A stretch of DNA of 64,000 nucleotides from Candidatus Omnitrophota bacterium (GCA_028716965.1 JAQUOV010000001.1:70448-134447); one strand, 5' to 3'; positions 43,724 to 63,958 are shown, numbered from the stretch's first letter. Notes: generated from the sequence alone by a model not told the origin. Numbers and translations are program-made.

Positions 43724-43724
43724 T

Positions 43725-44720: not shown

Positions 44721-45478
44721 CGGTATCGTTTCGTCATAGGAACACAAGATACTGCTTTCTGCAAAAATATTGTATCCATCCCATAAGCTATGAATTTAAA
44801 TCCCTGGGCGATCCTGCGCTTCAGATCGCGCTCGTCAGGATTAACTATATGTATGCCCAGCAGTTTATCTGAATCCTTCACCGCCTTGATTATTTTGTCA
44901 AGAACGGCATTAAATCTCTTATCGTTAAATTTACCGGGTATCCCCATTGAACCCGAAAGGTCATAAGGCCCGATGATACAGGCATCAATCCCTTTTAAAT
45001 TTAAGATCGAATCCAGGTTATCCAAAGCGTTAATATGCTCTATCTGGACTACCAGAATACTTGACCTATTTGCTTTACGGATATAACTCTCAAATTTCTT
45101 GCCGTATTGATGAGCCCTGCCTAAACCAAAGCTCCTTTTCCCAGTAGGAGGATAATTGACGGCATCGAGAGCCTTACGCGCGTCTTCTTCACAATTAATC
45201 ATCGGCACGATAACCCCTCCTGCGCCCGCATCCATGACGCGGCGTATTGTGCTGGGATCGTTTTCATTCAAACGAACAAGCGGAACTCCCCCTGAAAGAT
45301 TAATCACCTGAATCAACTTATAAACGTAATTTAAATCTATTAACCCGTGCTCCATATCAATAGCAAGCCAATCAAAGCCGGCTTTCGCCATAATCTCAGC
45401 ACTAAAAACATCCGGAAGCTGGATCCAGCTTCCTATTGATAACCTTTTTTTGCTTATCGAACTTTTTAGGTCTGTCAT
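44717..45478 (-). CDS. HpcH/HpaI-family class II (metal-dependent) pyruvate aldolase
   Basis: SIGSWIQLPDVFSAEIMAKAGFDWLAIDMEHGLID is the canonical N-terminal beta-strand/E-H region of HpcH/HpaI / citrate-lyase-beta-like aldolases. The size (253 aa) fits. Confidence 0.8.
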   Translation of the reverse strand: MTDLKSSISKKRLSIGSWIQLPDVFSAEIMAKAGFDWLAIDMEHGLIDLNYVYKLIQVINLSGGVPLVRLNENDPSTIRRVMDAGAGGVIVPMINCEEDARKALDAVNYPPTGKRSFGLGRAHQYGKKFESYIRKANRSSILVVQIEHINALDNLDSILNLKGIDACIIGPYDLSGSMGIPGKFNDKRFNAVLDKIIKAVKDSDKLLGIHIVNPDERDLKRRIAQGFKFIAYGMDTIFLQKAVSCVPMTKRYR

Positions 45479-49097: not shown

Positions 49098-50144
49098 TTA
49101 TCGCACTAAACCCCATGTTAAAGGAGTACCTCTTGTAATATCTTTGCGCGCGACTTTTCTTAGTATTCTTTTATAATATTTAGGTTCGATTCCGCAGGAC
49201 GGTCTTATCGAACGGATATTTTCTTCAGTCAACTGCTCACCTCTGCTTATGTCCTTAACTGCAAAAAGCGACCTTCTAAAATCCAAGCTTGTTTTTTCCT
49301 TAGCTGTTGGCCCGTAAAAAACATCACCTACCGCTCTTTCTGCCATCCTCACACTATTAACAAGTTCTTTTAATTCGATCGGCTCAATAGAAAAAGAACT
49401 ATCCGGAGTTTTTATCTTTCGTGATAATGTAAAATGCTTTTCAACCACTATAGCCCCAAGGCAGACTGCGGCAATCGATACTGCTGTTCCAAGCGTATGA
49501 TCCGAAAGCCCCACCCGACATCCAAAACGTTTTTTCATGTCCAATATGGTGCTAAGGTTCATCTCCCTTGGATCCGCGGGATAACTGCTCACACATTTAA
49601 GAAGAGTAATATCTTTTGATCCCGACTTCTTTGCTATATTAACGGCTTCCCTTATCTCCTGAATAGTAGCCATTCCTGTGGATAATATTATGGGTTTCTT
49701 AGTTTTGGCCGCATATTCGATCAATGACAAATCAATAAGTTCAAAAGACGCAATTTTATGGAAGGGAACTTTTAGATCTTCAAGGAAATCAATAGCTGTT
49801 TTATCAAAAGCTGTCGCAAAGAATGCCAGTCCTAAATTATCCGCTATGGTTTTTAGTTTTTTGAACCATCCCCAAGGTGTATACGCCTTTTTATACAATT
49901 CGTACAGGGTCTGACCTTTCCACTTACCGCTCTTTATCTTAAAATAATCATTGTTGCTATTAAAGGTGATGGTATCAGGAGTATAGACCTGAAATTTAAC
50001 TGCATCGGCGCCTGCTTCCTTTGCCGCCTTGATCATCTTGATAGCGTTATCGATCTTTTGATAATGGTTTGCCGATATTTCCGCTATTATGAAGGCTGAT
50101 TGTTTAAAACCAATCTTCTTTTCATATCTTCCCAAATTAGCCAT
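49098..50144 (-). CDS. pseI: Pseudaminic acid synthase-like NeuB-family enzyme
   Basis: FIIAEISANHYQKIDNAIKMIKAAKEAGADAVKFQ, plus the pseB/C/G/H context. The 5' end overlaps the WbqC-like gene by 58 nt, so the real start may be a non-ATG codon further in. Confidence 0.8.
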   Translation of the reverse strand: MANLGRYEKKIGFKQSAFIIAEISANHYQKIDNAIKMIKAAKEAGADAVKFQVYTPDTITFNSNNDYFKIKSGKWKGQTLYELYKKAYTPWGWFKKLKTIADNLGLAFFATAFDKTAIDFLEDLKVPFHKIASFELIDLSLIEYAAKTKKPIILSTGMATIQEIREAVNIAKKSGSKDITLLKCVSSYPADPREMNLSTILDMKKRFGCRVGLSDHTLGTAVSIAAVCLGAIVVEKHFTLSRKIKTPDSSFSIEPIELKELVNSVRMAERAVGDVFYGPTAKEKTSLDFRRSLFAVKDISRGEQLTEENIRSIRPSCGIEPKYYKRILRKVARKDITRGTPLTWGLVR

Positions 50145-50848
50145 TTAGAAGTACCTCCTTTAATAAGCTCTAATGTTTCTTTCGGCCCTACATTCATAAG
50201 CGCATCCGCAATTGAGAGGTAAGGAATAAAGCTATGAAGCGAACCAATCTGCTTATATTCTTTCGGTGTAAAACTCTGAAATATCACTTCAATATCTGCA
50301 ACAGGGAAAACTCCATCTTCCAGCATATATTCGAAAGCCCCCTTAGCAGAGAAGTACCGCTTTGCGCCACACCAATGTAAAAGCTCTAAAACTCGCTTTG
50401 AACGTTTTGATGATACGGGAAAATCCGAGCTAAGTCGGAATTCACGCTTCAAATCTAATAGACCACAAACCATCTTGATAAAAGATATGTTCATTTCCGC
50501 TAAAGAACTAAAATCTCCAAAAATCCATTCCTTTAGAGGTTTCAACATATCCTTAAAGAATGGTGCTTTTGAATAGTTTAGCTCTATCGCCTTCCACATC
50601 TTCACCCGCCATTTTGTAGCCTCGTTAATCCTTACTTCATTTAGCGGGGCCATAAATGAGGAAGTCTTTTGAACAGGCACAGTATACCATCCTATTTTTT
50701 CTTTATTCACAAAAAGACGGTTACGCTGCTGATAACTCTGCACAGAAAATTGGAAATCATCGAGAAGTATAAAAATTTCCGATCTATATATCAACTCAAA
50801 ATATCCCTGCCAAGGCGCGAAAGTAGGCTGCATCATAGCTACATCCAT
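50087..50848 (-). CDS. WbqC-family protein (conserved nonulosonate-cluster protein of unknown function)
   Basis: MMQPTFAPWQGYFELI...ILLDDFQF... is the characteristic WbqC-like N-terminus. Confidence 0.55.
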   Translation of the reverse strand: MDVAMMQPTFAPWQGYFELIYRSEIFILLDDFQFSVQSYQQRNRLFVNKEKIGWYTVPVQKTSSFMAPLNEVRINEATKWRVKMWKAIELNYSKAPFFKDMLKPLKEWIFGDFSSLAEMNISFIKMVCGLLDLKREFRLSSDFPVSSKRSKRVLELLHWCGAKRYFSAKGAFEYMLEDGVFPVADIEVIFQSFTPKEYKQIGSLHSFIPYLSIADALMNVGPKETLELIKGGTSKWLIWEDMKRRLVLNNQPS

Positions 50849-51339
50849 TCATCCCTCCGCAATCTTAAAAAGATGATCCTGCATCCGCGACTGGACCACT
50901 CATAATCAAGATTTAATTCTGCTTCCTTGAAACCGTTCTTTTTATAAAGGTTAATGGCCGCCAAATTAAAGTCAGCAACATGTAAATAAATCTCTTTTAA
51001 GCCTAATTTTTCAAAACAGTTCTCAAGCATCCCCTTCAGTGCTTTATCACCTATACCCATTCTTCTAGCAGGATGATCCCCGATATATATCCATACCTCC
51101 GCGCTTCTTTTAGACAAATCAATGTTCTTAATACCACAGTTCCCTACATGTAAATCATCTGAGATAATCGCATATACTTTTTGCGTAGGATCGCTCAATA
51201 CCTTTTTAAAATATTGAATATGCTGGCTGTAAGATACCTCACCGCGCATGAGGAATGCTCGACGCAACTCAACATCTTGAATCCATGTAAATGTTTTATC
51301 GATGTGTTCCTTGTTAAAATCTATTAAAACGGTTTCCAT
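50839..51339 (-). CDS. pseH: GNAT N-acetyltransferase, PseH-like (UDP-4-amino-4,6-dideoxy-N-acetyl-beta-L-altrosamine N-acetyltransferase)
   Basis: 166 aa. TFTWIQDVELRRAFLM...HIQYF and a later GNAT core (IGD...RRMGIG), in pse context. Confidence 0.65.
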   Translation of the reverse strand: METVLIDFNKEHIDKTFTWIQDVELRRAFLMRGEVSYSQHIQYFKKVLSDPTQKVYAIISDDLHVGNCGIKNIDLSKRSAEVWIYIGDHPARRMGIGDKALKGMLENCFEKLGLKEIYLHVADFNLAAINLYKKNGFKEAELNLDYEWSSRGCRIIFLRLRRDEWM

Positions 51340-51342
51340 ATC

Positions 51343-52410
51343 TTAAATATCATAGTCCGTGCAACTTCGGCAAAAATCTATTTCCCCTATTTTTCCGATT
51401 TTGTTAAGCTTAAGGATATTCTTGCGTTCTTTGCCATTCCAAATCTCGTAGAGCGTACGCTCTTTGATATTACCCAGTTTTATTTCTGCATTATAAGCAG
51501 CATCACAAAGAGTAACATCTCCATTCGAAAAAATAAAACAGTCGTTGCGAGTGACGCGTAAACACGAAGTAAGGGGTTTCCGAATCCTTTGTTTTAACCC
51601 GAAAGAATTGTTAGGAAGAGTTACATACTCTAGCATATTGACGCTCACAATTTCGGCCTTTTTATAATGCATTCTAATGAAATCATCAACTTCATGACAG
51701 GTAGTCTCCTGTTCTATCATTTGACAATGCAGATATGGTCTTTTCGGCAACCCCGCAGATCCCTTTATCTCATAGAATTTATTCAGGTTATTCTGAACTG
51801 CATTAAAATCCCCCTGTGGAACAACGGTTTTATAAGCTTTCTCCGTAACCGCATGAACAGAAAAATTTATGTAGTGTAGATTTGATCCAAATACCAAGCG
51901 TATCTTCTCTTCCGTAAAATATTGTCCGTTAGTACTCATCCATATAATACCTAAGTTGTTCTTGGTACTTATATGCTTAAGGTTATCCGAAAATTCCGGA
52001 TGCAATAATGATTCTCCCAAATGATAAAGCCATATACCCTCTATACCATGACTATCTATCTCGTCTATCACTTTTCTGTAAAGCTTCCCGTCCATATCCA
52101 TCCGCGGGCGCTTCAAGCCATGCTGGGGACACATTCTACAAAGATAATTACAACGGCTAGTCATTTCAAATAATATTCTGCGTGGAAAACTTTCGCGATT
52201 CAAATAACTACTTGTGGGAGGCTGTCGCCGTATAGGAACCACGGCAAACTCTTTTCTTGCTAGCTCCTCAGCATATTTTAAATTATTCGGATCTGTAACT
52301 AACGAAAGATGCTGTGTCATCAGGACAGGGGCAATCTTTTTAAGATCAAGAAATTTTGGAATTACTGGATTATTTACTTTTACATATCTTGCAAGATCTA
52401 CAAATTCCAT
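51343..52410 (-). CDS. Radical SAM enzyme with SPASM/twitch-like C-terminal domain
   Basis: EMTSRCNYLCRMCPQ (CxxxCxxC) and a C-terminal CDAAYNAEIKLGNIKERTLYEIWNG...CRSC. A paralog of the 36423..37469 protein. Confidence 0.75.
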   Translation of the reverse strand: MEFVDLARYVKVNNPVIPKFLDLKKIAPVLMTQHLSLVTDPNNLKYAEELARKEFAVVPIRRQPPTSSYLNRESFPRRILFEMTSRCNYLCRMCPQHGLKRPRMDMDGKLYRKVIDEIDSHGIEGIWLYHLGESLLHPEFSDNLKHISTKNNLGIIWMSTNGQYFTEEKIRLVFGSNLHYINFSVHAVTEKAYKTVVPQGDFNAVQNNLNKFYEIKGSAGLPKRPYLHCQMIEQETTCHEVDDFIRMHYKKAEIVSVNMLEYVTLPNNSFGLKQRIRKPLTSCLRVTRNDCFIFSNGDVTLCDAAYNAEIKLGNIKERTLYEIWNGKERKNILKLNKIGKIGEIDFCRSCTDYDI

Positions 52411-52425
52411 ATGACTAACCTCACG

Positions 52426-53316
52426 TTATTTGTTAATTGGGCTCGCATATATCGTAACCTGCCTGCCCAGATCCAACTCAGCTAATGCCTTATATAGCTT
52501 TAAAAGTTTATCTTCCTTCCCATATTTGCGCATCAACCGTTCAAATCTTACCCGGCGCAGATGGCATATTTTACCTAAATCCGGATTGCCTACGTATACA
52601 TCCCCCATCAGCATAAATATCTCAAGCGGAAAAGAAGATTCACTATGGATAACTTTATAACCGCATTTGGATAAAAGCCTCTTTAAAGACGTCGCGGAAA
52701 AATAGTTAATGTGATTCGGTGGACATACCCACCATCTCTTCAGGCCATATTCTTTATCGGCAAGCTCCTGAAAATCGTTAAATTCATTAGGCACATCTAC
52801 TACAAGTAATCCTTTAGGCTTGATCAATTTTCTCTTAATATTTAAGAGCGTACTAGCAGGATGACGCAGGTGTTCCAAAACGTTAATCATCGTAATTATA
52901 TGAAACCGCTCTTTTCCTACACAAGAGAAATCTTCAATGCCACATTGAAAAACATTCAACCCTTTACTCTTTATATATTCCGCTCCCTCCTTAGATGGCT
53001 CCAGGCCGCTCACCCTAATACCTTTATTATGAAAGTAAAGCAGTGCTTGACCAAAACCACATCCAACATCAAAGAGTGTTAATCCTTTATGCGTTTTAAA
53101 ATATTCGCTACAATACTTGGATATTGATGCCCAGCGACTGTTGAAAAAACCCTGCTCTTCTTTTTGCACTTTTAACGATGAATCATTAAATTGTTTATAC
53201 GTAGTAGAGTAAAAATCTTCCAGATAGAATCTCTCTACCTCTTCTTGTGTTGGAATGGGGTCTATACGTAAATAGCCATATTTTGGATCAGCTATAATCT
53301 TGTATCGTTTCTTCAT
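52426..53316 (-). CDS. Class I SAM-dependent methyltransferase
   Basis: TLFDVGCGFGQALLYFHNKGIRVSGLEPS (motif I), LLVVDVPN and FDVITMINVLEHL. Confidence 0.8.
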   Translation of the reverse strand: MKKRYKIIADPKYGYLRIDPIPTQEEVERFYLEDFYSTTYKQFNDSSLKVQKEEQGFFNSRWASISKYCSEYFKTHKGLTLFDVGCGFGQALLYFHNKGIRVSGLEPSKEGAEYIKSKGLNVFQCGIEDFSCVGKERFHIITMINVLEHLRHPASTLLNIKRKLIKPKGLLVVDVPNEFNDFQELADKEYGLKRWWVCPPNHINYFSATSLKRLLSKCGYKVIHSESSFPLEIFMLMGDVYVGNPDLGKICHLRRVRFERLMRKYGKEDKLLKLYKALAELDLGRQVTIYASPINK

Positions 53317-53336
53317 AATTTTATCCCTTTAAGACC

Positions 53337-54353
53337 TTAAGAAAACATGGCATTAGCGCATCTTTGGACGCCAAGGCCATCAACCAATTTAAAACTTGCT
53401 TCTGAATACCGTTTTAATATCTCAGAGTTTGATAAAAAATAGTCTATTCTATCCCTTATGTCTGTTGCAGTGACATCTTGAGCATCGCCAAGATAGTCAA
53501 GTATTTCATTTCTTGCCAAGTACTCTATAATCCTGGCTTGATTCTCTGTTACTGTCATTACCATAGATGGCAACCCTAAGCAACAACGTTCCCAGGTCGC
53601 TATTCCGGCCGAACCTATAAACAAATCAGATTCAAGCATCAACTCGGCAATGTTCTCTACGTTATGATAACAAAAAACAGTAGCCTTATCTTTTATAAGA
53701 TGCTGCAATTCAGTCTTGTTGGGATTATCAACCCCTATAACTAGATTTACAGCGATCTCTTGTCTTTTAAGCAAAAAAACGCCTTCAAGGATATTTTTTG
53801 TTATATTTTTCATATCGCTTCCACCAAAAAAAATCAATATTTTCTTAATCAAACCGCTCCTGACTCTTGTCTTTTGTCTTGCGATGGCAAATTCCTTTCG
53901 CAAAAGTGCAAATCTCGGCCCTAGAAGCATCTGGCAATTTCCAGACACTAAAGACTTATAATGATCTTCTAAGCCTTTATATAAATTCTGATCAAGCAGA
54001 AAATCACAAATATGCTCACGACTCCCCATATCATCGATAACCATGACTTTATCTACGAAAGGCCTTATCGCTTTCTCCCATTCAATATTCAATCCATAGT
54101 TATCAATAACCAAGTAAGATGGTCCACTATTATTCGTACATATTTTTTTGATTGCTTGCGGTGAATCATCCTCAATATAAAAAATGTCACACCCGTTCTT
54201 GTTTATTAAACTTTCAAATCCTTTATTCAACCTACGGCATATAAAGGATACATGCAATCCGCGTTCAACTAAGATATTTGCCAACGCCAGACACCTTATA
54301 AGATGGCCAGAGCCTATTTCCGGCGCAGCATCAACTCTGAATAATGCTTGCAT
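53337..54353 (-). CDS. pseG: UDP-2,4-diacetamido-2,4,6-trideoxy-beta-L-altropyranose hydrolase (PseG-like, GT-B/MurG-like fold)
   Basis: MQALFRVDAAPEIGSGHLIRCLALANIL is the signature PseG N-terminus (FRxDA..IGxGHxMRCL.LA). Confidence 0.8.
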   Translation of the reverse strand: MQALFRVDAAPEIGSGHLIRCLALANILVERGLHVSFICRRLNKGFESLINKNGCDIFYIEDDSPQAIKKICTNNSGPSYLVIDNYGLNIEWEKAIRPFVDKVMVIDDMGSREHICDFLLDQNLYKGLEDHYKSLVSGNCQMLLGPRFALLRKEFAIARQKTRVRSGLIKKILIFFGGSDMKNITKNILEGVFLLKRQEIAVNLVIGVDNPNKTELQHLIKDKATVFCYHNVENIAELMLESDLFIGSAGIATWERCCLGLPSMVMTVTENQARIIEYLARNEILDYLGDAQDVTATDIRDRIDYFLSNSEILKRYSEASFKLVDGLGVQRCANAMFS

Positions 54354-54369
54354 AATATAAATTTCTCCC

Positions 54370-55680
54370 CTAGGTTAATCTCTTGAATCCGGAATGGCAG
54401 ACGGGTCCTTTCAAATAAAGTTCCGGTCTATTCTTTTTAAGCGCTTTTGATATAGAAGCAAAAACGCTCTCTACAGCTTCTAAATAAACTTCAATGTGCT
54501 TCTCTTTATGCGCATAAGAAGCATAGTAAGCGTTTGTCGCTAAGAATCCCTTCTGAAGCATGTACTGCGTAAAAAGCGTCTTCAAAACTAGAGGTTCCTT
54601 ATAATTAAAAGAGAAATGAGAAAGTGGGTATATTCCATCTACTTTTATATCTACAGAATGTCTCTCCGCTGATATTTTCCATCCATTCTGAATCTTCATA
54701 CCCATAAGGTTAAGATGTTCAGGAATATTGTTAAGTTTCATCTTTTTTATAGCGGCCAACGCTGCCGCCGGTCCAATACGGTCAGTCCAATAGGTGCTGC
54801 TGATAAAGCTATCTTGGGCGTTCTGCATAATCTTTTTTCTACCTATTATCGCTGCCATTGGAAAACCATTGCTGATAGCCTTAGCAAATACCGCTATATC
54901 CGGTTCTATATTAAACAATTTATGCGCGCCGCCAACACATAGGCGCCATCCGGAAGAAACTTCATCCATAATAAGCACGGCTTTTGCTTTACGACTTTCA
55001 TTTCTTACAACTTCCAGAAAACCGCTTGACGGATATTTGTTTCTTATCGGCTCAATAATCACAGCTGCAATTTTACCCTTATATTTATTTATCAGGCTCA
55101 AGAATGTTTGCGTATCATTATAATTAAAGGGTATGGCTGTACCCTTTAATGCACGGGGCACTCCCTTAGGTTCTAATCCCGATAATAGATGCCCATCCAA
55201 AGATTTGTCATCTGCAAGGTTAGATGCCAAATACCAATCACTCCACCCATGATAGCCGCAAAAAAGTATTAAGTCCTTTCCTGTCGCAGCGCGCGCGATT
55301 CTAACGGCAATTGCCATTGCCTCTCCACCGCATCTGGCATACCTAACCATATCAGCCCAAGGATGAAGCTTAATAAGTAATTCCGCCAACTCTACTTCTT
55401 CGGGCACATTAAGCGTTGTCATGTTGCCACAGCTTACTGCTCTTTTTACCGCTTTATCAATATCGGGATCAGTATATCCTATAATACAGGCGCCAATTCC
55501 CATATAACTCATATCTATATATCGTTTCCCATCAAGATCCCAAATTTCACATCCTTTAGCTTTACTGTAATAAGCCGGCCAGTTTTCCGGTAAGAACATC
55601 TCCGGCCGCTTTGAAAAAAGTTGCGTGCCTCCAGGTATCAACTTTTTAGCTTTTTTATATAGTTCCTGTGATTTACCCAT
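54370..55680 (-). CDS. Class-III PLP aminotransferase (glutamate-1-semialdehyde aminomutase-like)
   Basis: LIPGGTQLFSKRPE, then a PLP Lys region (FAKAISNGFP). Start trimmed to the ATG at 55680 (MGKSQELY); the track start at 55704 is a TTG. Confidence 0.75.
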   Translation of the reverse strand: MGKSQELYKKAKKLIPGGTQLFSKRPEMFLPENWPAYYSKAKGCEIWDLDGKRYIDMSYMGIGACIIGYTDPDIDKAVKRAVSCGNMTTLNVPEEVELAELLIKLHPWADMVRYARCGGEAMAIAVRIARAATGKDLILFCGYHGWSDWYLASNLADDKSLDGHLLSGLEPKGVPRALKGTAIPFNYNDTQTFLSLINKYKGKIAAVIIEPIRNKYPSSGFLEVVRNESRKAKAVLIMDEVSSGWRLCVGGAHKLFNIEPDIAVFAKAISNGFPMAAIIGRKKIMQNAQDSFISSTYWTDRIGPAAALAAIKKMKLNNIPEHLNLMGMKIQNGWKISAERHSVDIKVDGIYPLSHFSFNYKEPLVLKTLFTQYMLQKGFLATNAYYASYAHKEKHIEVYLEAVESVFASISKALKKNRPELYLKGPVCHSGFKRLT

Positions 55681-56836
55681 TTTTATGACGATTGCATACC
55701 TCAAAAACAGTGTTAATGATATATTGAATTTCCCTGCTGGTCAACGCAGGATATATCGGAAGACTGATTTCTCTATGATAAAAATCTTCAGCTGCTGGAC
55801 AGATTCCTTTTTTAAAGCCGAGTTTTTTATAGTAAGGGTGCAAATAAACAGGAATATAATGTACCTGAACCCCTATTTTTTTATCCCTAAGGAGCTTAAA
55901 TATACCGTCTCTTTTTAATTCTAAATCTTTTTTCAGCCTGATGGGATAAAGATGGTAGGCGCAAAACACATCTTTATTTTCTTTAGGAACATCGAAGAAA
56001 TGATTGCCATTAAAAGCTTTATTATATGTAACGGCAATTTTACGCCTTTTTTCTATAAAAAAATCCAGCTTCTTCAACTGAGATATTCCAAGCGCGGACT
56101 GGATATCAGTCAAACGATAATTAAATCCAAGCTCCTGCATCTCATAATACCAACCACAATATCTCATTTTTCTATCTAACGATTTAGAATCCTTGGTAAT
56201 CCCATGATTGCGCAGCATTAAAAGACGTTGATATAGTCTTTTATTGTTCGTCAATACCGCCCCGCCTTCCCCTGTAGTAATTGCTTTTACAGGATGAAAA
56301 CTAAGAATAGCCATATCTGAATATTTACAAGAGCCTATTTTTGAACCTTTATACCTAGCTCCCAAGGCATGCGCCGCATCTTCAATAATCAATAAATCAT
56401 TCTTTCTTGCAATAATAGCTATCTCCTGCATATCGCATGGATATCCGGCGAAGTGAACTGGTACTAAAACTTTTGATTTCCTGGTTATTTTTTTAACTAT
56501 ATCGATTGGGTCTATATTACCGGTTTCCGGTTGTATATCCGCAAAAATAGGCTTTGCTCCGCAATAAAGAATGCAATTCGCAGAAGCTGCGAACGTTATA
56601 GGTGAAGTTATGGCCTCATCCCCGCGCCTTAATCCGGCAGATAAAGCTGCAATATGTAACGCGGCCGTACCGCTTGATACAGCCACCGCAAATTTAACGC
56701 CTGCATAATCACAAAGAGCGCTTTCAAATTCCGCGATCTTTGGCCCCTGCGTAATCCATTCAGAATTAAGGGCTCCTACTACTTCCCTAACATCATCCTG
56801 GTTAATACATTGATGTCCGTAAGGAATAGTTTTCAT
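55673..56836 (-). CDS. pseC: UDP-4-amino-4,6-dideoxy-N-acetyl-beta-L-altrosamine transaminase-like (PseC; DegT family)
   Basis: IPYGHQCINQDDVREVVGALNSEWITQGPKIAEFESALCDYAGVKFAVAVSSGTAALHIA is the typical PseC N-terminus. Start trimmed to the ATG at 56836 (MKTIPYG), immediately after the pseB stop. Confidence 0.85.
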   Translation of the reverse strand: MKTIPYGHQCINQDDVREVVGALNSEWITQGPKIAEFESALCDYAGVKFAVAVSSGTAALHIAALSAGLRRGDEAITSPITFAASANCILYCGAKPIFADIQPETGNIDPIDIVKKITRKSKVLVPVHFAGYPCDMQEIAIIARKNDLLIIEDAAHALGARYKGSKIGSCKYSDMAILSFHPVKAITTGEGGAVLTNNKRLYQRLLMLRNHGITKDSKSLDRKMRYCGWYYEMQELGFNYRLTDIQSALGISQLKKLDFFIEKRRKIAVTYNKAFNGNHFFDVPKENKDVFCAYHLYPIRLKKDLELKRDGIFKLLRDKKIGVQVHYIPVYLHPYYKKLGFKKGICPAAEDFYHREISLPIYPALTSREIQYIINTVFEVCNRHKNG

Positions 56837-57855
56837 ATTGATTTTAACGCCTTTCGTAGCTCTGTTTGCGTCAACCATTTTTTATTAGTATCACTAGCAT
56901 AGCTGAATCCTACAGGCACTTTTGTATATTTTTCATATTTTTCGTTAATTGCCCTTCCCCCTGAGAATTGCGGCATAATAACATAGAGACCATTAAATAT
57001 CTTTGCATTCCGCGCCTCATCACATGAAATTAGAAGCTCATGCAGCTTTTCTCCCGGTCGAATACCTATTTTCTTAAATTTGCATTCAGGCAGGATCGCT
57101 CGGGCAAGATCTACTATCTTCATAGACGGTATTTTTGGAACAAATATTTCGCCGCCTTCGGCCTCTTTAAGAGCCGTAATCACAAAATTAACACTCTGTT
57201 CCAAAGTCATCCAAAAACGCGTCATTGCATCATCGGTAATGGGAAACTCGGTTATACCGCGCCGTTTAAGATCAAGAAAAAGCTCAATAACGCTTCCTCT
57301 TGAAGCCATAACATTACCATAACGAACGACGGAGAACTTAACACGATTTCCGCCATAAGCGTTCGCGTTGATAAATATCTTTTCAGCTACCAGCTTAGTG
57401 GCACCATAAAGATTAATAGGATTTACCGCTTTATCCGTCGACAGTACTATAACTTTTTTTACGCCTCGGTCAAGAGCCGCATCAACAATATTATCGGCCC
57501 CTTGTATATTAGTCTTTACCGCTTCAAGAGGGTTATATTCAAGCGCTGGCACCTGTTTTAAGGCAGCGGCATGAATAACATAATCTACCCCCTCAAAAGC
57601 CCTACAAAGACGCCCCTTATCCCTGACATCTCCTAAGAAAAAACGAATCGGGTACTTGTCATCCGGAAATACTTTTGCCATTTCGCTTTGCTTGAATTCG
57701 TCCCTGCTGAAAATTATAAGCTTCTTTAATTTGAATTTTTTAAATACCATTTCGGTAAACTTCTTACCGAAAGAACCTGTTCCACCGGTCACCAGAATTA
57801 CTTTATCTTTCAAGTTCACAATCCCCTCCTCGCTCATCTTCCCATAGGCCATCAT
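56833..57855 (-). CDS. pseB: UDP-N-acetylglucosamine 4,6-dehydratase (inverting) / 5-epimerase (PseB/FlaA1-like)
   Basis: KVILVTGGTGSFGKKF...IIFSRDEFKQSEM...STDKAVNPINLYGATK is the short CapD/PseB-type SDR. Confidence 0.85.
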   Translation of the reverse strand: MMAYGKMSEEGIVNLKDKVILVTGGTGSFGKKFTEMVFKKFKLKKLIIFSRDEFKQSEMAKVFPDDKYPIRFFLGDVRDKGRLCRAFEGVDYVIHAAALKQVPALEYNPLEAVKTNIQGADNIVDAALDRGVKKVIVLSTDKAVNPINLYGATKLVAEKIFINANAYGGNRVKFSVVRYGNVMASRGSVIELFLDLKRRGITEFPITDDAMTRFWMTLEQSVNFVITALKEAEGGEIFVPKIPSMKIVDLARAILPECKFKKIGIRPGEKLHELLISCDEARNAKIFNGLYVIMPQFSGGRAINEKYEKYTKVPVGFSYASDTNKKWLTQTELRKALKSI

Positions 57856-59752
57856 TTATAAAGAAAGCACTCTCTATGTTATTTACTTTCTTATACCGCT
57901 CCGCTGCTAAATCCAGCGATTTAATAGGATCCCTGCTTACGACCACATCTTCCATAAAAATTCGGATAAATTCGCTTATTCTACTCTGACCTTTAAAATC
58001 ACCGAAATAGTTAAAAACATCTTTCCATTTAGAAAAATCTCCTATCCTGGTATCTCCTGTGCTCACTCGATTAAGAGCTGATACTATTTCCTCGAGATTC
58101 TTAAAAAATATCTTTTGCTCCGGATCTCTGTATATCGGATAATGTAGAAATCCGGATAAGTCCCAATGTATAGCCCTATGACCATAAATACCACTTATTA
58201 TTCCCGCCGAGTTCAAACCATAACAAACTGATATATTTGCATACGCCGCAGCTGTAATAGGCGAAACTTTGTTATTAAGAAAAACAAGTCTTCTCTGATT
58301 GATAAGCAACATTGCTTTTGAAACGATATCTTTACCGAAAGGCAAAGATTCAAGGTCATTTATTCTACCCCAGATTTTACTCTTTATTATCCCACCCCAT
58401 TCTGAGTTTTCCTCAAGCATCTCCAATACCTTAAGGTAGAATCTGGCCAAAGTCTCCTCTGATTGATGTATATTATACGCCACAGTAGAATCAAAAATTG
58501 CCATGATAAATCTTAGATCATCTTTCATACAGATCGCGCTGACATCTTCAACCGAGGGTCCCAACCATATACCCACCGGCAAAACATGACGGGCAATATT
58601 GCCCCTCTTTTGCATCCGTTCATACATCACTTTACCCCAAACAAAATATACATGCTGAGGATGGGACATCAAAGCTTCCTTGTAAAATGGAAAATTGGAC
58701 CAATGATACCCCAGCATAATCCCACCTACTTCTTCAAGTGCTATCATCTGTGGCTCTTTCACCCAAGACCCTTCCTGATGTTCAATCAGCACTTTCACCT
58801 TAAAGCGGCTGAAGACCGCTTTGTAGAGAAGATAAAACATTCTGAATTCGAACCGGAAAACTCTAAACCAAAACGGAGAACTCGAATAAGCGGAAAGAAA
58901 AGTACAAAACATATCCCAAAGTTGCCAAACACCTATATTGGCAAGCCGCACAAGAGAACCTGAACGCAAATCTACCCATTTTAAGCCCATATCCTCTATA
59001 GCCCTGATCTCATCCTCTAAAGAAACACCATCATTCCGATCAAGATAACAAACGATATCAAATTTCTTTCTATCTATGACATCGTGATTAAATGGAAAAC
59101 TACACCTACCATAATGAAGATACTCTAACCAGACGGATGGCTTGGGCTCATGAATATTAGTTCTTCCTCTTTTCTGAAATAACCTTTTCACCACAATTGA
59201 AAAAAGCCTGCAACACGGTATTAAAAAATAATTAACATACCCAAAAGATAACCCAGATTCCCTTATGCTATAACCTTTATCTCTATAATACTTCTTAATC
59301 ACTGAAGTTAAAGGATGCTTAGCCAGATAAATCACATTTATTCCACCATCTTGCTTAAACTTATCGCTACCCTCAACCATAGTTATAAATGTAACATAAG
59401 GCGCTAAATAAAAACTTATATATACTTTTACCGCGCTTTTAAAGCGCTCTGGTTCTTTCGGAATATACCTCTGGCAAAATTTACTCAGACAGATATCAAG
59501 ATCATTCTCCTTCCTATAGTTAAGGGCATAGCCTATCACATCTTTTTTATCCAAAGTCAATTTTGCCATATAAAAATTTTTGCAACAACCATAACTTTGC
59601 AATTTGCCAATTAAGAATGCTGCAATACCAGAAATCTTTTTTTCATCATACCTAACAGGAATTCGAGAAAAAAAAGTTTCGATAAATAGCCATATAAAAT
59701 CAAACATACCAAGCTTTTCAACCCAAATTGACAGTATCCTTTTATATCGCAT
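57803..59752 (-). CDS. Large (649 aa) uncharacterized protein, candidate novel transferase
   Basis: No recognised motif and mostly soluble. It sits between a B12 radical SAM gene and pseB, and its 3' end overlaps the pseB start by about 50 nt. Confidence 0.3.
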   Translation of the reverse strand: MRYKRILSIWVEKLGMFDFIWLFIETFFSRIPVRYDEKKISGIAAFLIGKLQSYGCCKNFYMAKLTLDKKDVIGYALNYRKENDLDICLSKFCQRYIPKEPERFKSAVKVYISFYLAPYVTFITMVEGSDKFKQDGGINVIYLAKHPLTSVIKKYYRDKGYSIRESGLSFGYVNYFLIPCCRLFSIVVKRLFQKRGRTNIHEPKPSVWLEYLHYGRCSFPFNHDVIDRKKFDIVCYLDRNDGVSLEDEIRAIEDMGLKWVDLRSGSLVRLANIGVWQLWDMFCTFLSAYSSSPFWFRVFRFEFRMFYLLYKAVFSRFKVKVLIEHQEGSWVKEPQMIALEEVGGIMLGYHWSNFPFYKEALMSHPQHVYFVWGKVMYERMQKRGNIARHVLPVGIWLGPSVEDVSAICMKDDLRFIMAIFDSTVAYNIHQSEETLARFYLKVLEMLEENSEWGGIIKSKIWGRINDLESLPFGKDIVSKAMLLINQRRLVFLNNKVSPITAAAYANISVCYGLNSAGIISGIYGHRAIHWDLSGFLHYPIYRDPEQKIFFKNLEEIVSALNRVSTGDTRIGDFSKWKDVFNYFGDFKGQSRISEFIRIFMEDVVVSRDPIKSLDLAAERYKKVNNIESAFFINDGLWEDERGGDCELER

Positions 59753-59764: not shown

Positions 59765-61177
59765 TCAGGTTTGCCTAAAACCTCTAAAATCTTTGTTTTT
59801 ACTTAAGTAGAGCTTCTCTGCCTCACTGATCATAGTATCTGCCTTTTTACTAAAATAATTACTTATAAGCTTTGTGTTAGCCGATAATAAAGCCTTGTGA
59901 ATTTCTTTATCGCTCATTTCGGTAAAATTAACCGCTAAAAGATCGGAATTTATATGCTTATTTTCATAAAAATCTTCGCAATCTTTTAATAGACCCTTCT
60001 CTATAGCATGATAGTAAAGTGGCGAACCAGGATATGGAGTAACCGGGCGTATCGTGCGCATTTGCGCACCATCATCGTATTTTAATAAAAATTCTACACC
60101 CTTTTGTAGAGTTTCATCACTATCACCAATATTGCCAAAAATAATATTGAATCCAGGACTAATCCCACTAGCTAGCGTTGCATTAATACCTTCGATAATT
60201 TGTTTTACTGTTAGAATCTTTTTCATGTTCTTCAATACTTGATCATCCATAGCCTCAATTCCATAATTTATAAAAACACAACCTGCCTGCTTCATTAATT
60301 TAAGGAGGTCAATTTTCGCATAATTAAGACGTCCGTTACAGTCCCATTTGATATTAAGTTTCGCTTTAATAAAATCCTTACAAAGCATTTCAGTTCTTTC
60401 CATTGAAGACATCAATAATTCATCGGAAAAAGCGATATACGTTATCCCATATTTCTCCTTCAATAACCGGACCTCATCAATTATGCTCTCATTTGAACGT
60501 GGCCTAAACCCTTCATCAAGACGATAACAAAAACTACAGGTAAAGTTACATCCCCTACCAGAAAGCACAGGCATTACAAAATCAGTATTGGTCACATGAG
60601 GCATCCGTAAAAGTCTATAATACTCTACCGGAAAAAGATGGAAAGCTGGAAAAGGTATTTGATCAATATCTTTGATCAGCTCACGTTTTTTATTTATGAC
60701 AACATCATCTCCTTCACGAAAAGCGATTCCATTAATATTTGAAAGAGATTTTTTATTGATAATTGCATCCAACAATTCCACAATCGTTACTTCCCCTTCA
60801 CCCATAACAACAGCATCTGCAGAGGTACGTCTTAGAAAAAACTCTGGTTCTGGAGACGGGCCATGCCCTCCAATAATGTAAAATGGCCGACGGCGCGAGT
60901 TGTTTATTGCTCGGGAAATACGTAAAAGTTTATTATATTGGTAATAACCAGCAATCACGCTAACACCGATAATATCAAATACATTCTTATTTAGGTATTG
61001 AGTAAGATGGTTATCGTGATAATGTTCTTTATCTTGATTGTATATTTCAACATAATATCCCGCCTTTTCCATTACCGATGCTATATACGCCAAACCTTGC
61101 GGAAACCAATGAATATATGAATCGTTATCGTAAGCTACCAGTAAAATTTTGGCATTCTTATTTTTTCTAGTATGCAT
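59765..61177 (-). CDS. B12-binding radical SAM enzyme (class B)
   Basis: KILLVAYDNDSYIHWFPQGLAYIASVM (B12-like domain) and LSGRGCNFTCSFCYR (CxxxCxxC). Confidence 0.8.
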   Translation of the reverse strand: MHTRKNKNAKILLVAYDNDSYIHWFPQGLAYIASVMEKAGYYVEIYNQDKEHYHDNHLTQYLNKNVFDIIGVSVIAGYYQYNKLLRISRAINNSRRRPFYIIGGHGPSPEPEFFLRRTSADAVVMGEGEVTIVELLDAIINKKSLSNINGIAFREGDDVVINKKRELIKDIDQIPFPAFHLFPVEYYRLLRMPHVTNTDFVMPVLSGRGCNFTCSFCYRLDEGFRPRSNESIIDEVRLLKEKYGITYIAFSDELLMSSMERTEMLCKDFIKAKLNIKWDCNGRLNYAKIDLLKLMKQAGCVFINYGIEAMDDQVLKNMKKILTVKQIIEGINATLASGISPGFNIIFGNIGDSDETLQKGVEFLLKYDDGAQMRTIRPVTPYPGSPLYYHAIEKGLLKDCEDFYENKHINSDLLAVNFTEMSDKEIHKALLSANTKLISNYFSKKADTMISEAEKLYLSKNKDFRGFRQT

Positions 61178-62412
61178 TAATCATCTACTCCGTCATTATT
61201 CACTGTATGCCGCAATCTCCACTTACCATTCACTTTAGTCCATAAATGAGGAGACCGAAACTTATCACATAATTCCATGAAATGCTCAGGCGTAATCCCA
61301 ATATAATCTAAAACTTCCTTGGAATACCTACTTGGAACTTCCCCATCGAATCGCTTAACCAAAGACTTTCCCTCTTCTCTGTTCAGATGTTTATTTCTGA
61401 TTTCTTGAGAAGCATCATATGAAGCTCGGCCGATACCAAATTTAATAAAAGTGGTATAATAATGGAAGTCATCACATTTATCATCGATACTATTGTATTT
61501 ACTATAGGTTCCTTCGGTTCGAAACGGCCTAGCCTGAAAATTAGTATGTTCAACGGCGTAATAATACGCTTCTTGGGGCGTCCATTTAACATAATACCCC
61601 ATATAATGCACTTCAATATTACCTTGTTCTAATTCTGTATAATTAGGAGGTAAATATACCATCAAGTCATTTAGACACAAACCATATTTCTCAATCAATT
61701 CTTTTATCGAAACACCACTCAGTAAGATACCCGACATATTTTGCATGGCATAATAAGATTTATCTCTTAGTGACGTCTTGGTTTCCGCGATAGGATTCCC
61801 ATACTCAGCTTCAGATTCACCGTAAAAAACAAGCGGCACTTTATATTTTAATGCTATTTTTGGTGGGAGATTTTTTTGCCCCAGAGCAAACGTATGAAAA
61901 GGATGTAGAAGATTCTCAAAAGACAACTTAGTGAGCAGTTTATGAATTTTGGCATTTGGTTTAAAAGTTATATTGTCAAAACCACCTACATCAATCCAGT
62001 TGCAGAAATTCTTATATCCGTATTCAGTATACAAAAGCGGCGACCAGGTAACGGTTAACGGGTGCATACCATATTTATATTTCAATAAATGAGAGGCGTA
62101 AACGCTATCCTTTCCGCCGCTACCTGGAACAATACAGTCATATCGACCGTCATTTTTTCTGTGCCTATCCAAAAGTCTTAACAACTCTTTTTCTCTTTTT
62201 CCCCAATCAATCTGTTCCTTCTGTTCTGCGAATCTACAGGCATCACAAATTCCTTCTTTATCGATTTGCAGACCTGTATGTTTATGTCTCACAGAATGCT
62301 TAAATTCCACGTTAGATTTTGGTCTTTGATTAGACATTACACACCGCTTGCAAAAAATAATATTTTCAGGCAAACCGGTTATGGAAACTAACCTTTCTTT
62401 TTTCTCCACCAC
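61177..62412 (-). CDS. N-acetyl-sugar amidotransferase, PP-loop ATPase (PseA/WbuX/LfnA-like; makes acetamidino sugars)
   Basis: CIVPGSGGKDSVYASHLL (SGGxDS PP-loop) and N-terminal Cys motifs (FCKRCVMSN...CDACR). Confidence 0.8.
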   Translation of the reverse strand: MVEKKERLVSITGLPENIIFCKRCVMSNQRPKSNVEFKHSVRHKHTGLQIDKEGICDACRFAEQKEQIDWGKREKELLRLLDRHRKNDGRYDCIVPGSGGKDSVYASHLLKYKYGMHPLTVTWSPLLYTEYGYKNFCNWIDVGGFDNITFKPNAKIHKLLTKLSFENLLHPFHTFALGQKNLPPKIALKYKVPLVFYGESEAEYGNPIAETKTSLRDKSYYAMQNMSGILLSGVSIKELIEKYGLCLNDLMVYLPPNYTELEQGNIEVHYMGYYVKWTPQEAYYYAVEHTNFQARPFRTEGTYSKYNSIDDKCDDFHYYTTFIKFGIGRASYDASQEIRNKHLNREEGKSLVKRFDGEVPSRYSKEVLDYIGITPEHFMELCDKFRSPHLWTKVNGKWRLRHTVNNDGVDD

Positions 62413-62421
62413 TTTACCTCC

Positions 62422-63084
62422 TTAATAACTCTTAACGATTTGTGCCCACTTACCATAAATCTCTAAACCCATCTTCGCACTCTTTTCCGGATGAAATTGA
62501 CAAGCAAATACATTTCTCCAAGAAAGACTAGAACAATATTTTATACCAGCATAATTCGATACAGATAATATTACCTTTTCATCCACAGGCTTACAATAAT
62601 AGGAATGCACAAAATACATAAATTCCCCGTTCTTCTGTCCTTCTAATGGCGTTCTATCCCAGGAAATTTCGTTACCACCATACCTACTCCTTTTAATCAT
62701 ATTCCAGCCAACTTGAGGTATTTTATATGAGTTACCCTTATTGTTAACCGTAGGGAATTTTGTAACGATCCCCGAAAAAATGCTGAGTCCTTTTGACTTA
62801 CTGAATTCTTCGCTTTCGCTAAACAAAAGTTGCATACCCAAACAAATCCCCATAAAAGGCTTACCTAATTTTATATAATCTACAATTAAATCAACTAAGC
62901 CTCTCTCTTGTAAAGTTTTCATCGCTTCGGCAAATGCCCCAACACCAGGCAATATTACTCCGGAGGATCTAAAGATATCACTCTTTAAACAAGTAATTTT
63001 AGCTGGCAAACCTACATTCTCACACGCCTGTTGTATACTAAATAAATTTCCCATATCATAATCAATGATTGCCACCTTATGCAT
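62422..63084 (-). CDS. hisH: Glutamine amidotransferase subunit, HisH paralog (WbuY-like ammonia donor for amidotransferase)
   Basis: MHKVAIIDYDMGNLFSIQQACENVG, then a GICLGMQLL catalytic Cys region and H/E near the C-terminus. Start trimmed to the ATG at 63084. Confidence 0.85.
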   Translation of the reverse strand: MHKVAIIDYDMGNLFSIQQACENVGLPAKITCLKSDIFRSSGVILPGVGAFAEAMKTLQERGLVDLIVDYIKLGKPFMGICLGMQLLFSESEEFSKSKGLSIFSGIVTKFPTVNNKGNSYKIPQVGWNMIKRSRYGGNEISWDRTPLEGQKNGEFMYFVHSYYCKPVDEKVILSVSNYAGIKYCSSLSWRNVFACQFHPEKSAKMGLEIYGKWAQIVKSY

Positions 63085-63958
63085 GAACTGCCTCCGCATT
63101 CACACGATGCCGACAGTCAACCTGGAAGCGATGTAGATATTCTTTGATCTCCGGAAGATTCGCCGTTTGTATTTTTGAGAAACTTTTACCGCTTTTTAAG
63201 TATTCAATATTACCTTCAATCTTAAATAGTTCCTTATCCACAATTTGCTTTTTTATAAAGTCATAGTGCAGAACTGAAGCCAAACAAACTGCGTCTGCAC
63301 ATCCCTCTAAAATAACATTTGTTATATCGGATAAATTTCCTGCACCACCGCTTGCGATAACGGGTATAGAGACTGCGCATGAGACCATCTTTGTCAAAGT
63401 AAGATCATATCCTGAACCCGTGCCTTCCCGATCAATTGAAACTAATAAGATTTCACCGGCACCAAGTGCTTCAACCCGCTGAGCCCATTCTAACACTTCT
63501 ACCCCCGAATATTCCCTGCCATTATCAGTATATGCTAAATAACGTCCATCCGATTGTTTTATCGCCTCAATGGCAACCACAATTGTTGATGAACCAAATC
63601 TTCGCGCCGCTTCGCTAATAATCTTCGGATCTTTTAAAGCCGCAGTATTTAATGAAACCTTATCCGCTCCGGCACGCAAAACGTTTCTTATGTCATCGAT
63701 TGTACGCAAACCGCCACCTACTGTTAAAGGAATAAAAATTTCTTTAGCTGTTTTTGCAATTATATCATGAAGGCTATTTCTATTGTATAAGCTGGCAACT
63801 ACATCTATATATATAAGTTCATCAGCACCGTTTTCATAATAATATTTTGCGAAATTCTCGGGTTTACCTAAAACCCTCAGGCCTTCCAGATGAATGCCTT
63901 TTACTAAATTCGGCCCTTTTATATCTAAACGGGGAATAATTCTAATGTTTTTTGACAT
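63077..63958 (-). CDS. hisF: Cyclase subunit, HisF paralog (WbuZ-like, ammonia channel partner)
   Basis: IRIIPRLDIKGPNLVKGIHLEGLRVLGKP and (beta/alpha)8 repeats with GADKVSLNTAA and GAGEILL. Confidence 0.85.
   Translation of the reverse strand: MSKNIRIIPRLDIKGPNLVKGIHLEGLRVLGKPENFAKYYYENGADELIYIDVVASLYNRNSLHDIIAKTAKEIFIPLTVGGGLRTIDDIRNVLRAGADKVSLNTAALKDPKIISEAARRFGSSTIVVAIEAIKQSDGRYLAYTDNGREYSGVEVLEWAQRVEALGAGEILLVSIDREGTGSGYDLTLTKMVSCAVSIPVIASGGAGNLSDITNVILEGCADAVCLASVLHYDFIKKQIVDKELFKIEGNIEYLKSGKSFSKIQTANLPEIKEYLHRFQVDCRHRVNAEAVHA

Follow-up and report, generated by a model that had tools for sequence, protein, structure and literature searches.

A known three-part machinery turns the acetamido group of a sugar into an acetamidino (Am) group; it consists of a PP-loop amidotransferase, a HisH-like glutaminase, and a HisF-like barrel. 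In Campylobacter, the hisH- and hisF-like genes Cj1315c and Cj1314c adjoin pseA, and the AglX, AglY, and AglZ proteins of Methanococcus maripaludis, described by Jones et al. in 2012 (J Bacteriol 194:2693, as cited in PMC10117864), reportedly target a ManNAc3NAmA-type N-glycan sugar and not a nonulosonic acid (NulO). The motifs of the N-acetyl sugar amidotransferase (NASAT) family, SGGXDS and a tetracysteine, were defined in a structure paper whose alignment takes in Campylobacter members, and in which the reaction, with ATP cleaved to AMP and PPi, is a proposal even for the solved enzyme, PDB 8WEX (PMC10607449). The same paper gives hexosamine or uronic sugars (FucNAc and ManNAcA types), not NulOs, as the substrates of WbuX and WbpG. 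The Legionella O-antigen is Leg5Am7Ac-based (PMC3766260), and in Campylobacter, for which pseA and ptmG are named, the Am group is made at the CMP-sugar stage (PMC5378307).

We analyzed a 64-kb stretch of DNA (64,000 nucleotides, here called the window) from an Omnitrophota metagenome-assembled genome, in which such a triad lies next to a radical SAM protein (rSAM) with a B12-binding domain. The four open reading frames claimed for this locus in an earlier note were all found in place on the minus strand, and because their family-match E-values range from 1e-16 to 1e-107, they are not chance reading frames. In the order of transcription, they encode the HisF-like (beta-alpha)8 barrel (positions 63077-63958, 293 aa; PF00977 His_biosynth, 221.6 bits), the HisH-like class I glutaminase (62422-63099, 225 aa, or from a start at 63084; TIGR01855 and PF00117), the WbuX/NASAT PP-loop amidotransferase (61177-62412, 411 aa; TIGR03573), and rSAM (59765-61177, 470 aa; PF02310 and PF04055). 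The earlier note had rSAM precede the triad, which is true of plus-strand coordinates only, as rSAM is transcribed after it, a point that the text of that note makes too; the junctions were described correctly, including the 1-nt overlap in which the WbuX stop and the rSAM start have one base in common (TAATG). The HisH stop is separated from the GTG start of WbuX by a 9-nt spacer containing GGAGG. The HisF and HisH genes overlap by 23 nt. An alternative HisH start, the ATG at 63084, would reduce the overlap to 8 nt; it lies 6 nt downstream of a GGAGG, agrees with the public gene call, and is probably the true start, giving a protein of 220 aa. A cytidylyltransferase gene ends 6 nt upstream of HisF, and the next gene downstream of rSAM follows after 12 nt.

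The four genes form the head of a pseudaminic acid (Pse) operon within a 64-kb surface-glycan cluster. In the 1,792 nt that follow position 64000 lie genes for the PseF-like NulO cytidylyltransferase (158 bits, below the cut-off of 206) and a CBS-nucleotidyltransferase. Directly after rSAM, a gene at 57803-59752 (minus strand) encodes a 649-aa protein to which no family was assigned: searches of Pfam, NCBIfam, and PDB sequences gave no match, a weak PF27878 match is listed in the public record, and relatives lie directly after rSAM or WbuX in loci L011, L016, L025, L035, L092, and L138. It is followed by a string of Pse genes, all on the minus strand (49098-57855), encoding PseB (56833-57855; score 477, cut-off 408), PseC (55673-56878; 507, cut-off 424), a class III aminotransferase (54370-55704), PseG (53337-54353; 274, cut-off 154), a methyltransferase (52426-53316), a SPASM radical SAM protein (51343-52410), a PseH-like protein (50839-51339; 67, below the cut-off of 93), a WbqC-like protein (50087-50848; PF08889), and PseI (49098-50144; 468, cut-off 340). 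The window also encodes a PglF-like dehydratase, Gmd/Fcl-like proteins, and other sugar enzymes.

In the test that the earlier note had asked for, the WbuX product proved a true TIGR03573 (NASAT) member, scoring 357.4 bits (cut-off, 203.2) with residues 19-381 of 411 covered. It contains the PP-loop motif SGGXDS as SGGKDS (residues 98-103) and the zinc tetracysteine CXXCXn[GN]XCXXC as C21-K-R-C24 ... G-I-C56-D-A-C59, and it is 58% identical to the L. pneumophila NASAT (PDB 8WEX) over 400 residues (E = 2e-155). From its sequence, we predict that it is an N-acetyl sugar amidotransferase, a zinc-ribbon-containing ATP pyrophosphatase of the PP-loop type. The name PseA-like, which had been given to it, is apt at the family level and loose beyond that, as its closest characterized relative is the Legionella enzyme from a legionaminic acid (Leg) cluster. 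The HisH-like protein passed the TIGR01855 cut-off (186.6 bits versus 105.4) and has the Cys-His-Glu triad (Cys86 in GICLG, His203-Pro-Glu205) and the oxyanion strand PGVG at residue 51; its predicted role is of the WbuY/AglY type. The HisF-like protein remained below the cut-offs for WbuZ (TIGR03572; 276 bits versus 299.7), HisF (TIGR00735; 269.3 versus 294.55), and AglZ/HisF2 (NF038364; 208.2 versus 310). Its ammonia-gate residues R5, E46, K99, and E167 are intact and conserved, and both phosphate-binding sites are kept, as is D11, while the other catalytic aspartate of HisF, D130 (T. maritima numbering), is replaced by glutamate in this protein and in 70 of the 72 HisF-like orthologues, making the exchange a family signature. 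The protein further has a conserved insertion of ∼30 aa with the motif EGNxE[FY]L. It is presumed to be the ammonia-channel subunit of the amidotransferase, in a WbuZ/AglZ-type role.

HisF, HisH, and WbuX formed one uninterrupted block in 47 of 52 orthologue loci; of the 33 loci that were well-flanked, 31 contained NulO genes. Together with the subthreshold HisF score and the D130E signature, this upholds the earlier note's view of HisH and HisF as pathway-dedicated paralogues within a known acetamido-to-acetamidino machinery; within that system, the triad is unremarkable. That the two might instead be real histidine biosynthesis genes located here by chance could be read from the HisH score above the TIGR01855 cut-off, from the D11 and phosphate-binding sites kept in the HisF-like protein, and from its database name, since the identical protein at NCBI is called "imidazole glycerol phosphate synthase cyclase subunit." This reading is hardly credible, given the near-invariant synteny with WbuX, the HisF-like score below the equivalog cut-off, and the D130E exchange. 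Moreover, no hisA, hisB, hisC, hisD, hisG, or hisI gene was found across the window and the 1.8 kb beyond it, where the earlier note had considered that a continuing his operon might lie and where the cytidylyltransferase and CBS-nucleotidyltransferase genes were found. The substrate of the triad could also be another N-acetylated sugar in the glycan, for instance a UDP-sugar of the FucNAc or ManNAcA type, since the characterized WbuX and WbpG use such sugars (PMC10607449) and the PglF-like, Gmd/Fcl-like, and other sugar enzymes are encoded in the window. We consider this improbable, however, as the WbuX gene lies between those for the NulO cytidylyltransferase and PseB, nearly all well-flanked orthologue loci contain NulO genes, and the closest characterized enzyme comes from Legionella, with its Leg5Am7Ac-based O-antigen (PMC3766260).

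rSAM matched PF02310 (B12-binding) with 59.7 bits (gathering score, 32.1) and PF04055 (Radical_SAM) with 77.4 bits (gathering score, 29.5), and its CX3CX2C cluster motif is formed by C210, C214, and C217. The B12 label is a domain assignment; cobalamin use is putative. It is indeed the fourth such protein in the window, as had been claimed, with paralogues at 8555-10219, 29604-31130, and 37459-38967 that are 23-27% identical. No NCBIfam equivalog was reached (best, BchE with 134.9 versus a cut-off of 481; AprD4, 70 versus 500), and rSAM falls outside the characterized subfamilies that we checked (BchE, HpnJ, PhpK, HpnR, TsrM, MCR Gln methylase, AprD4, and others), with all scores far below the cut-offs. 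The folds nearest to its AF2 model (pLDDT, 89.5) were those of TsrM, AprD4, MgmA, OxsB, CysS, and TokK, with Foldseek E-values of 1e-17 to 1e-23, TM-scores of 0.6-0.72, and identities of 16-19%.

Among GTDB species representatives, 332 relatives of rSAM were found. Our figures on synteny and conservation apply only to the set of close orthologues, the best 80 of the 332 by similarity. Within this set, identities were 66-77%, and more than 12 phyla, including archaea, were represented. Approximately 85% of the well-flanked loci were NulO clusters: a NulO synthase was present in 44 of these 51 loci, a cytidylyltransferase in 43 (directly adjacent in 17), a CBS-nucleotidyltransferase in 39, and a LegC/PseC-type aminotransferase in 38, and LegB, NeuC/LegG, a NeuD-type acetyltransferase, and a PtmA-like SDR were also identified as neighbors. 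Full-text searches of a literature library found no paper tying such a radical SAM enzyme to nonulosonic acids. By sequence and gene neighborhood, rSAM belongs to a strongly conserved clade, so far unnamed, that goes with NulO clusters in many anaerobes, whether or not the triad is present.

The earlier note had proposed that amidination and radical modification follow one another on the same substrate. The NulO setting of the rSAM orthologues agrees with this, but an obligate two-step pathway does not fit the distribution of the genes. Coupling, in which rSAM would need the amidine or the reverse, is suggested by the 1-nt overlap of WbuX and rSAM in the window and, among the best 80 rSAM loci, by the 10 in which WbuX adjoins rSAM directly and the 20 with a complete triad within 10 kb. 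Against this, WbuX was found within 10 kb in only 18 of the 51 well-flanked rSAM loci (35%; absent from 65%), rSAM was present in only 5 of the 33 well-flanked WbuX loci (15%; absent from 85%), and two organisms in culture, Geomonas silvestris (L050) and Desulfoscipio geothermicus (L068), carry rSAM but no WbuX. WbuX-linked and WbuX-free orthologues of rSAM showed no sequence split (mean identities of 0.689, 0.683, and 0.680), and a nearest-neighbor test was not significant (8 of 17 observed versus 5.3 ± 2.6 expected, with 374 of 2,000 shuffles reaching the observed value). Coupling is therefore quite unlikely, and these patterns indicate that the triad and rSAM are independent tailoring modules. 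As to what rSAM does, our favored guess, with about even chances of being right, is cobalamin-dependent C-methylation of an unactivated carbon, and in its favor most solved fold neighbors are cobalamin-dependent methylases (TsrM, MgmA, CysS, and TokK). AprD4, a cobalamin-independent sugar diol dehydratase of similar length, counts against this, since its structure (6fd2) ranked first in the PDB both by sequence (6e-18) and by two-way TM-score (0.72/0.74), and the top NCBIfam matches, BchE and HpnJ, are not methylases either. rSAM could accordingly tailor NulOs by AprD4-like dehydration or deoxygenation, by epimerization, or by rearrangement, in a cobalamin-independent or nonmethylating manner. 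This is possible but rather doubtful: the AprD4 model reaches only the core (residues 165-405), whereas true B12 radical SAM models match from residue ∼23, and the BchE, PhpK, ladderane, and HpnJ models and the Pfam B12-binding domain also include the N-terminal domain. In addition, by established sugar chemistry, Leg and Pse lack a vicinal diol on which an AprD4-type reaction could act.

Overall, it is likely that two independent tailoring modules, the amidotransferase triad and the B12-domain rSAM, head a Pse-type NulO operon, although the AprD4 match, the HisF-like scores below the WbuZ and AglZ/HisF2 cut-offs, and the other sugar pathways in the window, together with the non-NulO substrates of WbuX and WbpG, count against parts of this. 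In the triad, which would act as a glutamine-dependent amidotransferase, HisH would hydrolyze glutamine and dock on the HisF-like barrel, through which ammonia would pass to the PP-loop enzyme. There, ATP would activate the carbonyl in the N-acetyl group of a sugar, releasing AMP and PPi, and ammonia would displace the activated oxygen to give an N-acetimidoyl (acetamidino) group, most likely on CMP-activated Pse or, more generally, on a 5,7-diacetamido NulO. rSAM would tailor NulOs separately, with no need for the amidine or the amidotransferase, and it probably recognizes the 5,7-diamino-3,5,7,9-tetradeoxy-NulO scaffold common to Leg and Pse. We tentatively suggest, well short of an even bet, that it carries out an undescribed step, widespread in anaerobic bacteria and archaea, in which cobalamin-dependent radical C-methylation of the skeleton or an N-acyl methyl of a CMP-activated 5,7-diamino-tetradeoxy-NulO gives C10 or branched "higher-carbon" ulosonic acids. 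Mass spectrometry has yielded signals without explanation, namely a CMP-linked C10 ulosonic acid in Magnetospirillum gryphiswaldense and CMP-NulOs shifted by +14.01 Da in anammox bacteria (bioRxiv 10.64898/2026.04.20.719630), and if NulO C-methylation by rSAM is real, it may account for both.

Compared with known systems, the triad shares SGGXDS, the tetracysteine, and the adjoining HisH/HisF-like pair with WbuX/WbuY/WbuZ of E. coli O145, WbpG of P. aeruginosa O5, and 8WEX, but its setting is a Pse-type NulO operon, not an O-antigen hexosamine pathway, and its HisF partner scores just below the WbuZ cut-off and has the ∼30-aa insertion and D130E. With Campylobacter PseA and PtmG (LegA), it has in common the family, the NulO locus, and the predicted reaction on a 5,7-diacetamido NulO; the likeness to PseA is a family-level statement only, the Legionella enzyme being the closest characterized one. 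AglX/AglY/AglZ follow the same logic of amidotransferase, HisH-like glutaminase, and HisF-like channel, and the HisF-like protein matches the AglZ/HisF2 model NF038364 below its cut-off. rSAM, finally, has the N-terminal Rossmann B12-type domain and CX3CX2C radical SAM barrel of TsrM, MgmA, CysS, TokK, OxsB, and AprD4, for none of which a niche in NulO clusters has been described.

Every large ORF between 54 and 64 kb lies on the minus strand, and the four genes that an earlier note had described were recovered there when we assigned families with Pfam and NCBIfam profiles and read the junctions straight from the sequence. They encode a HisF-like protein of 293 aa (63958-63077, minus; PF00977, 221.6 bits), a HisH-like protein of 225 aa (63099-62422, minus; TIGR01855, 186.6 bits against a cut-off of 105.4), a PP-loop protein of 411 aa (62412-61177, minus; TIGR03573 WbuX, 357.4 bits against a cut-off of 203.2), and a radical SAM protein of 470 aa with a B12-binding domain, here called rSAM (61177-59765, minus; PF02310, 59.7 bits, and PF04055, 77.4 bits). 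The HisF and HisH genes overlap by 23 nt. Translation of HisH from the ATG at 63084, the start chosen in the public gene call and one with GGAGG 6 nt upstream, would shorten the overlap to 8 nt. A 9-nt spacer containing GGAGG separates HisH from the GTG start of the amidotransferase gene; the amidotransferase/rSAM junction is TAATG, with a 1-nt overlap, and 12 nt separate rSAM from the next gene. When 54-64 kb were scanned for promoters and terminators, there was no excess over shuffled sequences, and the scan thus neither supported nor split an operon.

The note had assigned the three upstream genes to the conversion of an acetamido to an acetamidino group and had proposed TIGR03573 membership as a check. 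The PP-loop protein exceeds that cut-off, and it matches PDB 8WEX (E = 2e-155, 58% identity over 400 residues), the N-acetyl sugar amidotransferase of Legionella pneumophila (PMC10607449). Both motifs that define this family, the PP-loop SGGXDS and the zinc tetracysteine CXXCXn[GN]XCXXC (PMC10607449), are present, as SGGKDS at residues 98-103 and as C21xxC24 ... G-I-C56-D-A-C59; together, the score, the structural match, and the motifs back the triad as probable amidine-forming machinery. The HisH-like protein keeps the oxyanion strand PGVG, Cys86, His203, and Glu205. If the triad works as PP-loop amidotransferases and imidazole glycerol phosphate synthase do, the glutaminase would free ammonia from glutamine and the barrel would conduct it to the PP-loop enzyme, which would adenylate the acetamido oxygen; displacement of AMP by ammonia would then yield the amidine. 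Cleavage of ATP into AMP plus PPi has been proposed for the 8WEX family (PMC10607449), and in Campylobacter amidination takes place at the CMP-sugar stage (PMC5378307).

Scanning metagenomes with the amidotransferase as the query gave 80 WbuX loci at 65-75% identity. HisF, HisH, and WbuX are contiguous in 47 of the 52 loci with enough upstream sequence, and nonulosonic acid (NulO) genes occur in 31 of the 33 that are well flanked. Because of this contiguity and company, the HisF/HisH pair is pathway-dedicated, as the note had held. Six NulO loci (L026, L058, L063, L109, L127, and L128) carry two WbuX-family amidotransferases, at 67-70% and 28-33% identity to the window protein and sometimes with a second HisH/HisF pair; their product may be amidinated at both N5 and N7.

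The HisF-like protein scores just under the cut-offs for WbuZ (276 against 299.7) and the HisF equivalog (269.3 against 294.55) and under that for AglZ/HisF2 (208 against 310). We aligned it with a T. maritima HisF reference sequence, cross-checked against the HMMER alignment to HisF-LUCA, and a second alignment covered 72 triad-linked HisF-like orthologues. The ammonia-gate residues R5, E46, K99, and E167 are kept in 70 to 72 of the 72, and D11 and both phosphate sites are retained; the catalytic D130 is replaced by Glu in 70 and D176 by Glu in 67. An insertion of ∼30 residues follows beta8 (window residues ∼239-269) and bears a conserved E-G-N-x-E-[FY]-L motif. In a (beta-alpha)8 barrel the post-beta8 loop belongs to the catalytic face, and the insertion may be where the amidotransferase docks; in the AF2 model the loop has low confidence (pLDDT 45-53), and the barrel is confident. 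The identical protein (P0271) is named "imidazole glycerol phosphate synthase cyclase subunit" at NCBI; relatives of it are entered at JGI as "cyclase" or "HisF". Such naming can mislead metabolic reconstructions of MAGs by wrongly crediting them with a step of histidine biosynthesis.

According to the note, his genes directly after position 64000 would have indicated a histidine operon. A Logan contig found by exact-protein look-up (L001) shares 6,880 identical nt with the window and runs 1,792 nt past 64000, where it encodes a PseF-like cytidylyltransferase (TIGR03584, 157.6 bits, under its cut-off of 205.7) and a CBS-plus-nucleotidyltransferase protein (CBS-NT). There are no his genes in these 1,792 nt, so this test for a histidine operon was negative, and we found no histidine gene in the 64-kb window. 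Given these absences from the 64 kb and the 1,792 nt beyond, the synteny, and the D130E replacement, we rejected a histidine operon fragment as very unlikely.

Downstream of rSAM, PseB, PseC, PseG, and PseI each exceed their equivalog cut-offs, accompanied by a PseH-like GNAT, a WbqC-like protein, a class III aminotransferase, a methyltransferase, a SPASM radical SAM protein, an LIC12162-family transferase, and a PglK/MsbA-like ABC exporter. The class III aminotransferase (54370-55704) lies inside the Pse operon and resembles glutamate-1-semialdehyde aminomutase; relatives at 48-61% identity adjoin an rSAM orthologue in loci L016, L020, L035, L011, and L041. The gene right after rSAM in the downstream direction encodes a 649-aa protein (57803-59752, minus) that matched nothing in Pfam up to E = 1, in NCBIfam, or among PDB sequences, and that does not resemble the LIC12162 transferase. 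Its relatives stand directly after rSAM or WbuX in the Omnitrophota-type loci L011, L016, L025, L035, and L092, and one in L138 shares 63% identity; the protein is a candidate NulO transferase or other tailoring enzyme. The rest of the window is devoted to glycan biosynthesis (Gmd, an Fcl-like protein, glycosyltransferases, Wzx, a priming phosphotransferase, and a PglF-like dehydratase) and includes a second NeuB-like and KdsB-like set. Identical proteins are on record at NCBI for a Candidatus Omnitrophica MAG, on a contig of 276,780 bp. The second, ulosonic-acid-like set (31127-45478), interleaved with B12 and SPASM radical SAM genes, comprises a short cytidylyltransferase-like ORF (31127-31927), a NeuB-like synthase under the NeuB and PseI cut-offs (31941-32954), a HAD phosphatase (38983-39624), a 2-hydroxyacid dehydrogenase (41202-42113), a KdsB-like cytidylyltransferase (42950-43849), and an HpaI-like aldolase (44717-45478).

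The note had counted rSAM as the fourth B12 radical SAM enzyme of the window, and three further B12-domain paralogues, at 23-27% identity to it, are indeed present. With two SPASM/twitch proteins, they form the other radical SAM complement of the glycan cluster (8555-10219, 29604-31130, 37459-38967, 36423-37469, and 51343-52410). Extra rSAM paralogues at 23-33% identity are common in related loci, such as L005, L014, L023, and L027.

We examined the company of rSAM by tblastn and de novo neighbour clustering at 51 loci flanked by 5 kb or more on each side. A NulO synthase was found nearby in 44, a NulO-type cytidylyltransferase in 43 (directly adjacent in 17), a CBS-NT in 39, and a LegC/PseC-type aminotransferase in 38; WbuX was near rSAM in 18 and directly adjacent in 7. 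Typical neighbours also include LegB (TIGR04180, 511 bits against 475), NeuC/LegG (TIGR03568), a NeuD-type acetyltransferase, and a PtmA-like SDR. This set is legionaminic-type; a few loci, the window among them, are pseudaminic-type, and rSAM probably recognises something common to both sugars. A recurrent gene order is CBS-NT, cytidylyltransferase, rSAM, with the triad placed between the latter two in the window. Counted in reverse, an rSAM orthologue occurs in only 5 of the 33 well-flanked WbuX loci. The rSAM sequences could not be separated by the presence or absence of WbuX beside them (mean identities 0.689, 0.683, and 0.680), and a nearest-neighbour test gave 8/17 against 5.3 ± 2.6 expected, a value reached in 374 of 2000 shuffles. 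On the two-way counts and the missing sequence separation we rejected an obligate WbuX-rSAM pair, and the note's proposal of amidination and a radical step as a coupled sequence on one substrate is not supported as an obligate arrangement. We infer from the same data that the triad and rSAM are independent accessories of NulO clusters.

The rSAM is the most conserved protein of these clusters: its median pairwise identity is 68.5%, against 35-54% for canonical NulO enzymes of the same loci, which were picked by rSAM similarity. Orthologues occur in Archaea as well as Bacteria, in over a dozen phyla. The best 120 database matches listed, at 71-77% identity, come from Omnitrophota, Nitrospirota, Planctomycetota (Brocadiaceae), Desulfobacterota, Chloroflexota, Actinomycetota, and others. 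Among 185,579 species genomes scanned there were 332 relatives, and among the best 80 of these, at 66-75% identity, are Methanolobus and a Promethearchaeota MAG as well as two cultured species, Geomonas silvestris and Desulfoscipio geothermicus. In an exhaustive search of representatives (5,245 at E <= 1e-30), identity fell gradually (66, 57, 51, 50, 48 ... %), so the family edge is not sharp and its boundary cannot come from sequence alone. Loci L100 and L103 (2300-3700) carry a radical SAM protein at 40% identity right upstream of cytidylyltransferase-HisF-HisH-WbuX in a Pse-like setting, an arrangement that points to a sister clade sharing this genomic niche.

No NCBIfam equivalog was reached by rSAM, the top scores being BchE (134.9 bits against 481), ladderane rSAM (133), HpnJ (129), and PhpK-type models (105-113). 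Its AF2 model is confident (pLDDT 89.5), and the Foldseek neighbours, all at 16-19% identity, are TsrM (7.6e-23), AprD4 (TM 0.72/0.74), MgmA, OxsB, CysS, and TokK. Most characterised relatives are cobalamin-dependent methylases and the N-terminal domain also fits true B12-rSAM models; for these reasons we favour C-methylation, a reading with about an even chance of being right. An AprD4-like or other non-methylating reaction is a serious rival, possible though doubtful: AprD4 ranked first in a profile-to-PDB sequence search, over the core only, and the AprD4 model scores 70 bits on rSAM, over residues 165-405 only. Full-text searches of a paper library for radical SAM or cobalamin alongside nonulosonic, legionaminic, or pseudaminic acid turned up nothing relevant. 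A CMP-activated C10 "higher-carbon" ulosonic acid from Magnetospirillum gryphiswaldense and +14.01 Da CMP-NulOs from Ca. Kuenenia have been described, neither with a known biosynthetic source (2026 preprint, 10.64898/2026.04.20.719630). Orthologues of rSAM are present in Brocadiaceae and Scalindua MAGs. An enzyme C-methylating NulOs would fit both products, as a candidate lead only.

Nonulosonic acids influence surface charge as well as recognition by phages and by the immune system. If true, radical C-H functionalisation of NulOs would represent a modification of a new type and offer a new tool for chemoenzymatic synthesis, and the two cultured carriers, G. silvestris and D. geothermicus, make the question testable. 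The uncharacterised rSAM clade, a widely distributed NulO-cluster enzyme, is a useful lead that is worth an experiment. The triad, a new and ordinary member of the known amidine-forming system, adds little as a further copy of it.
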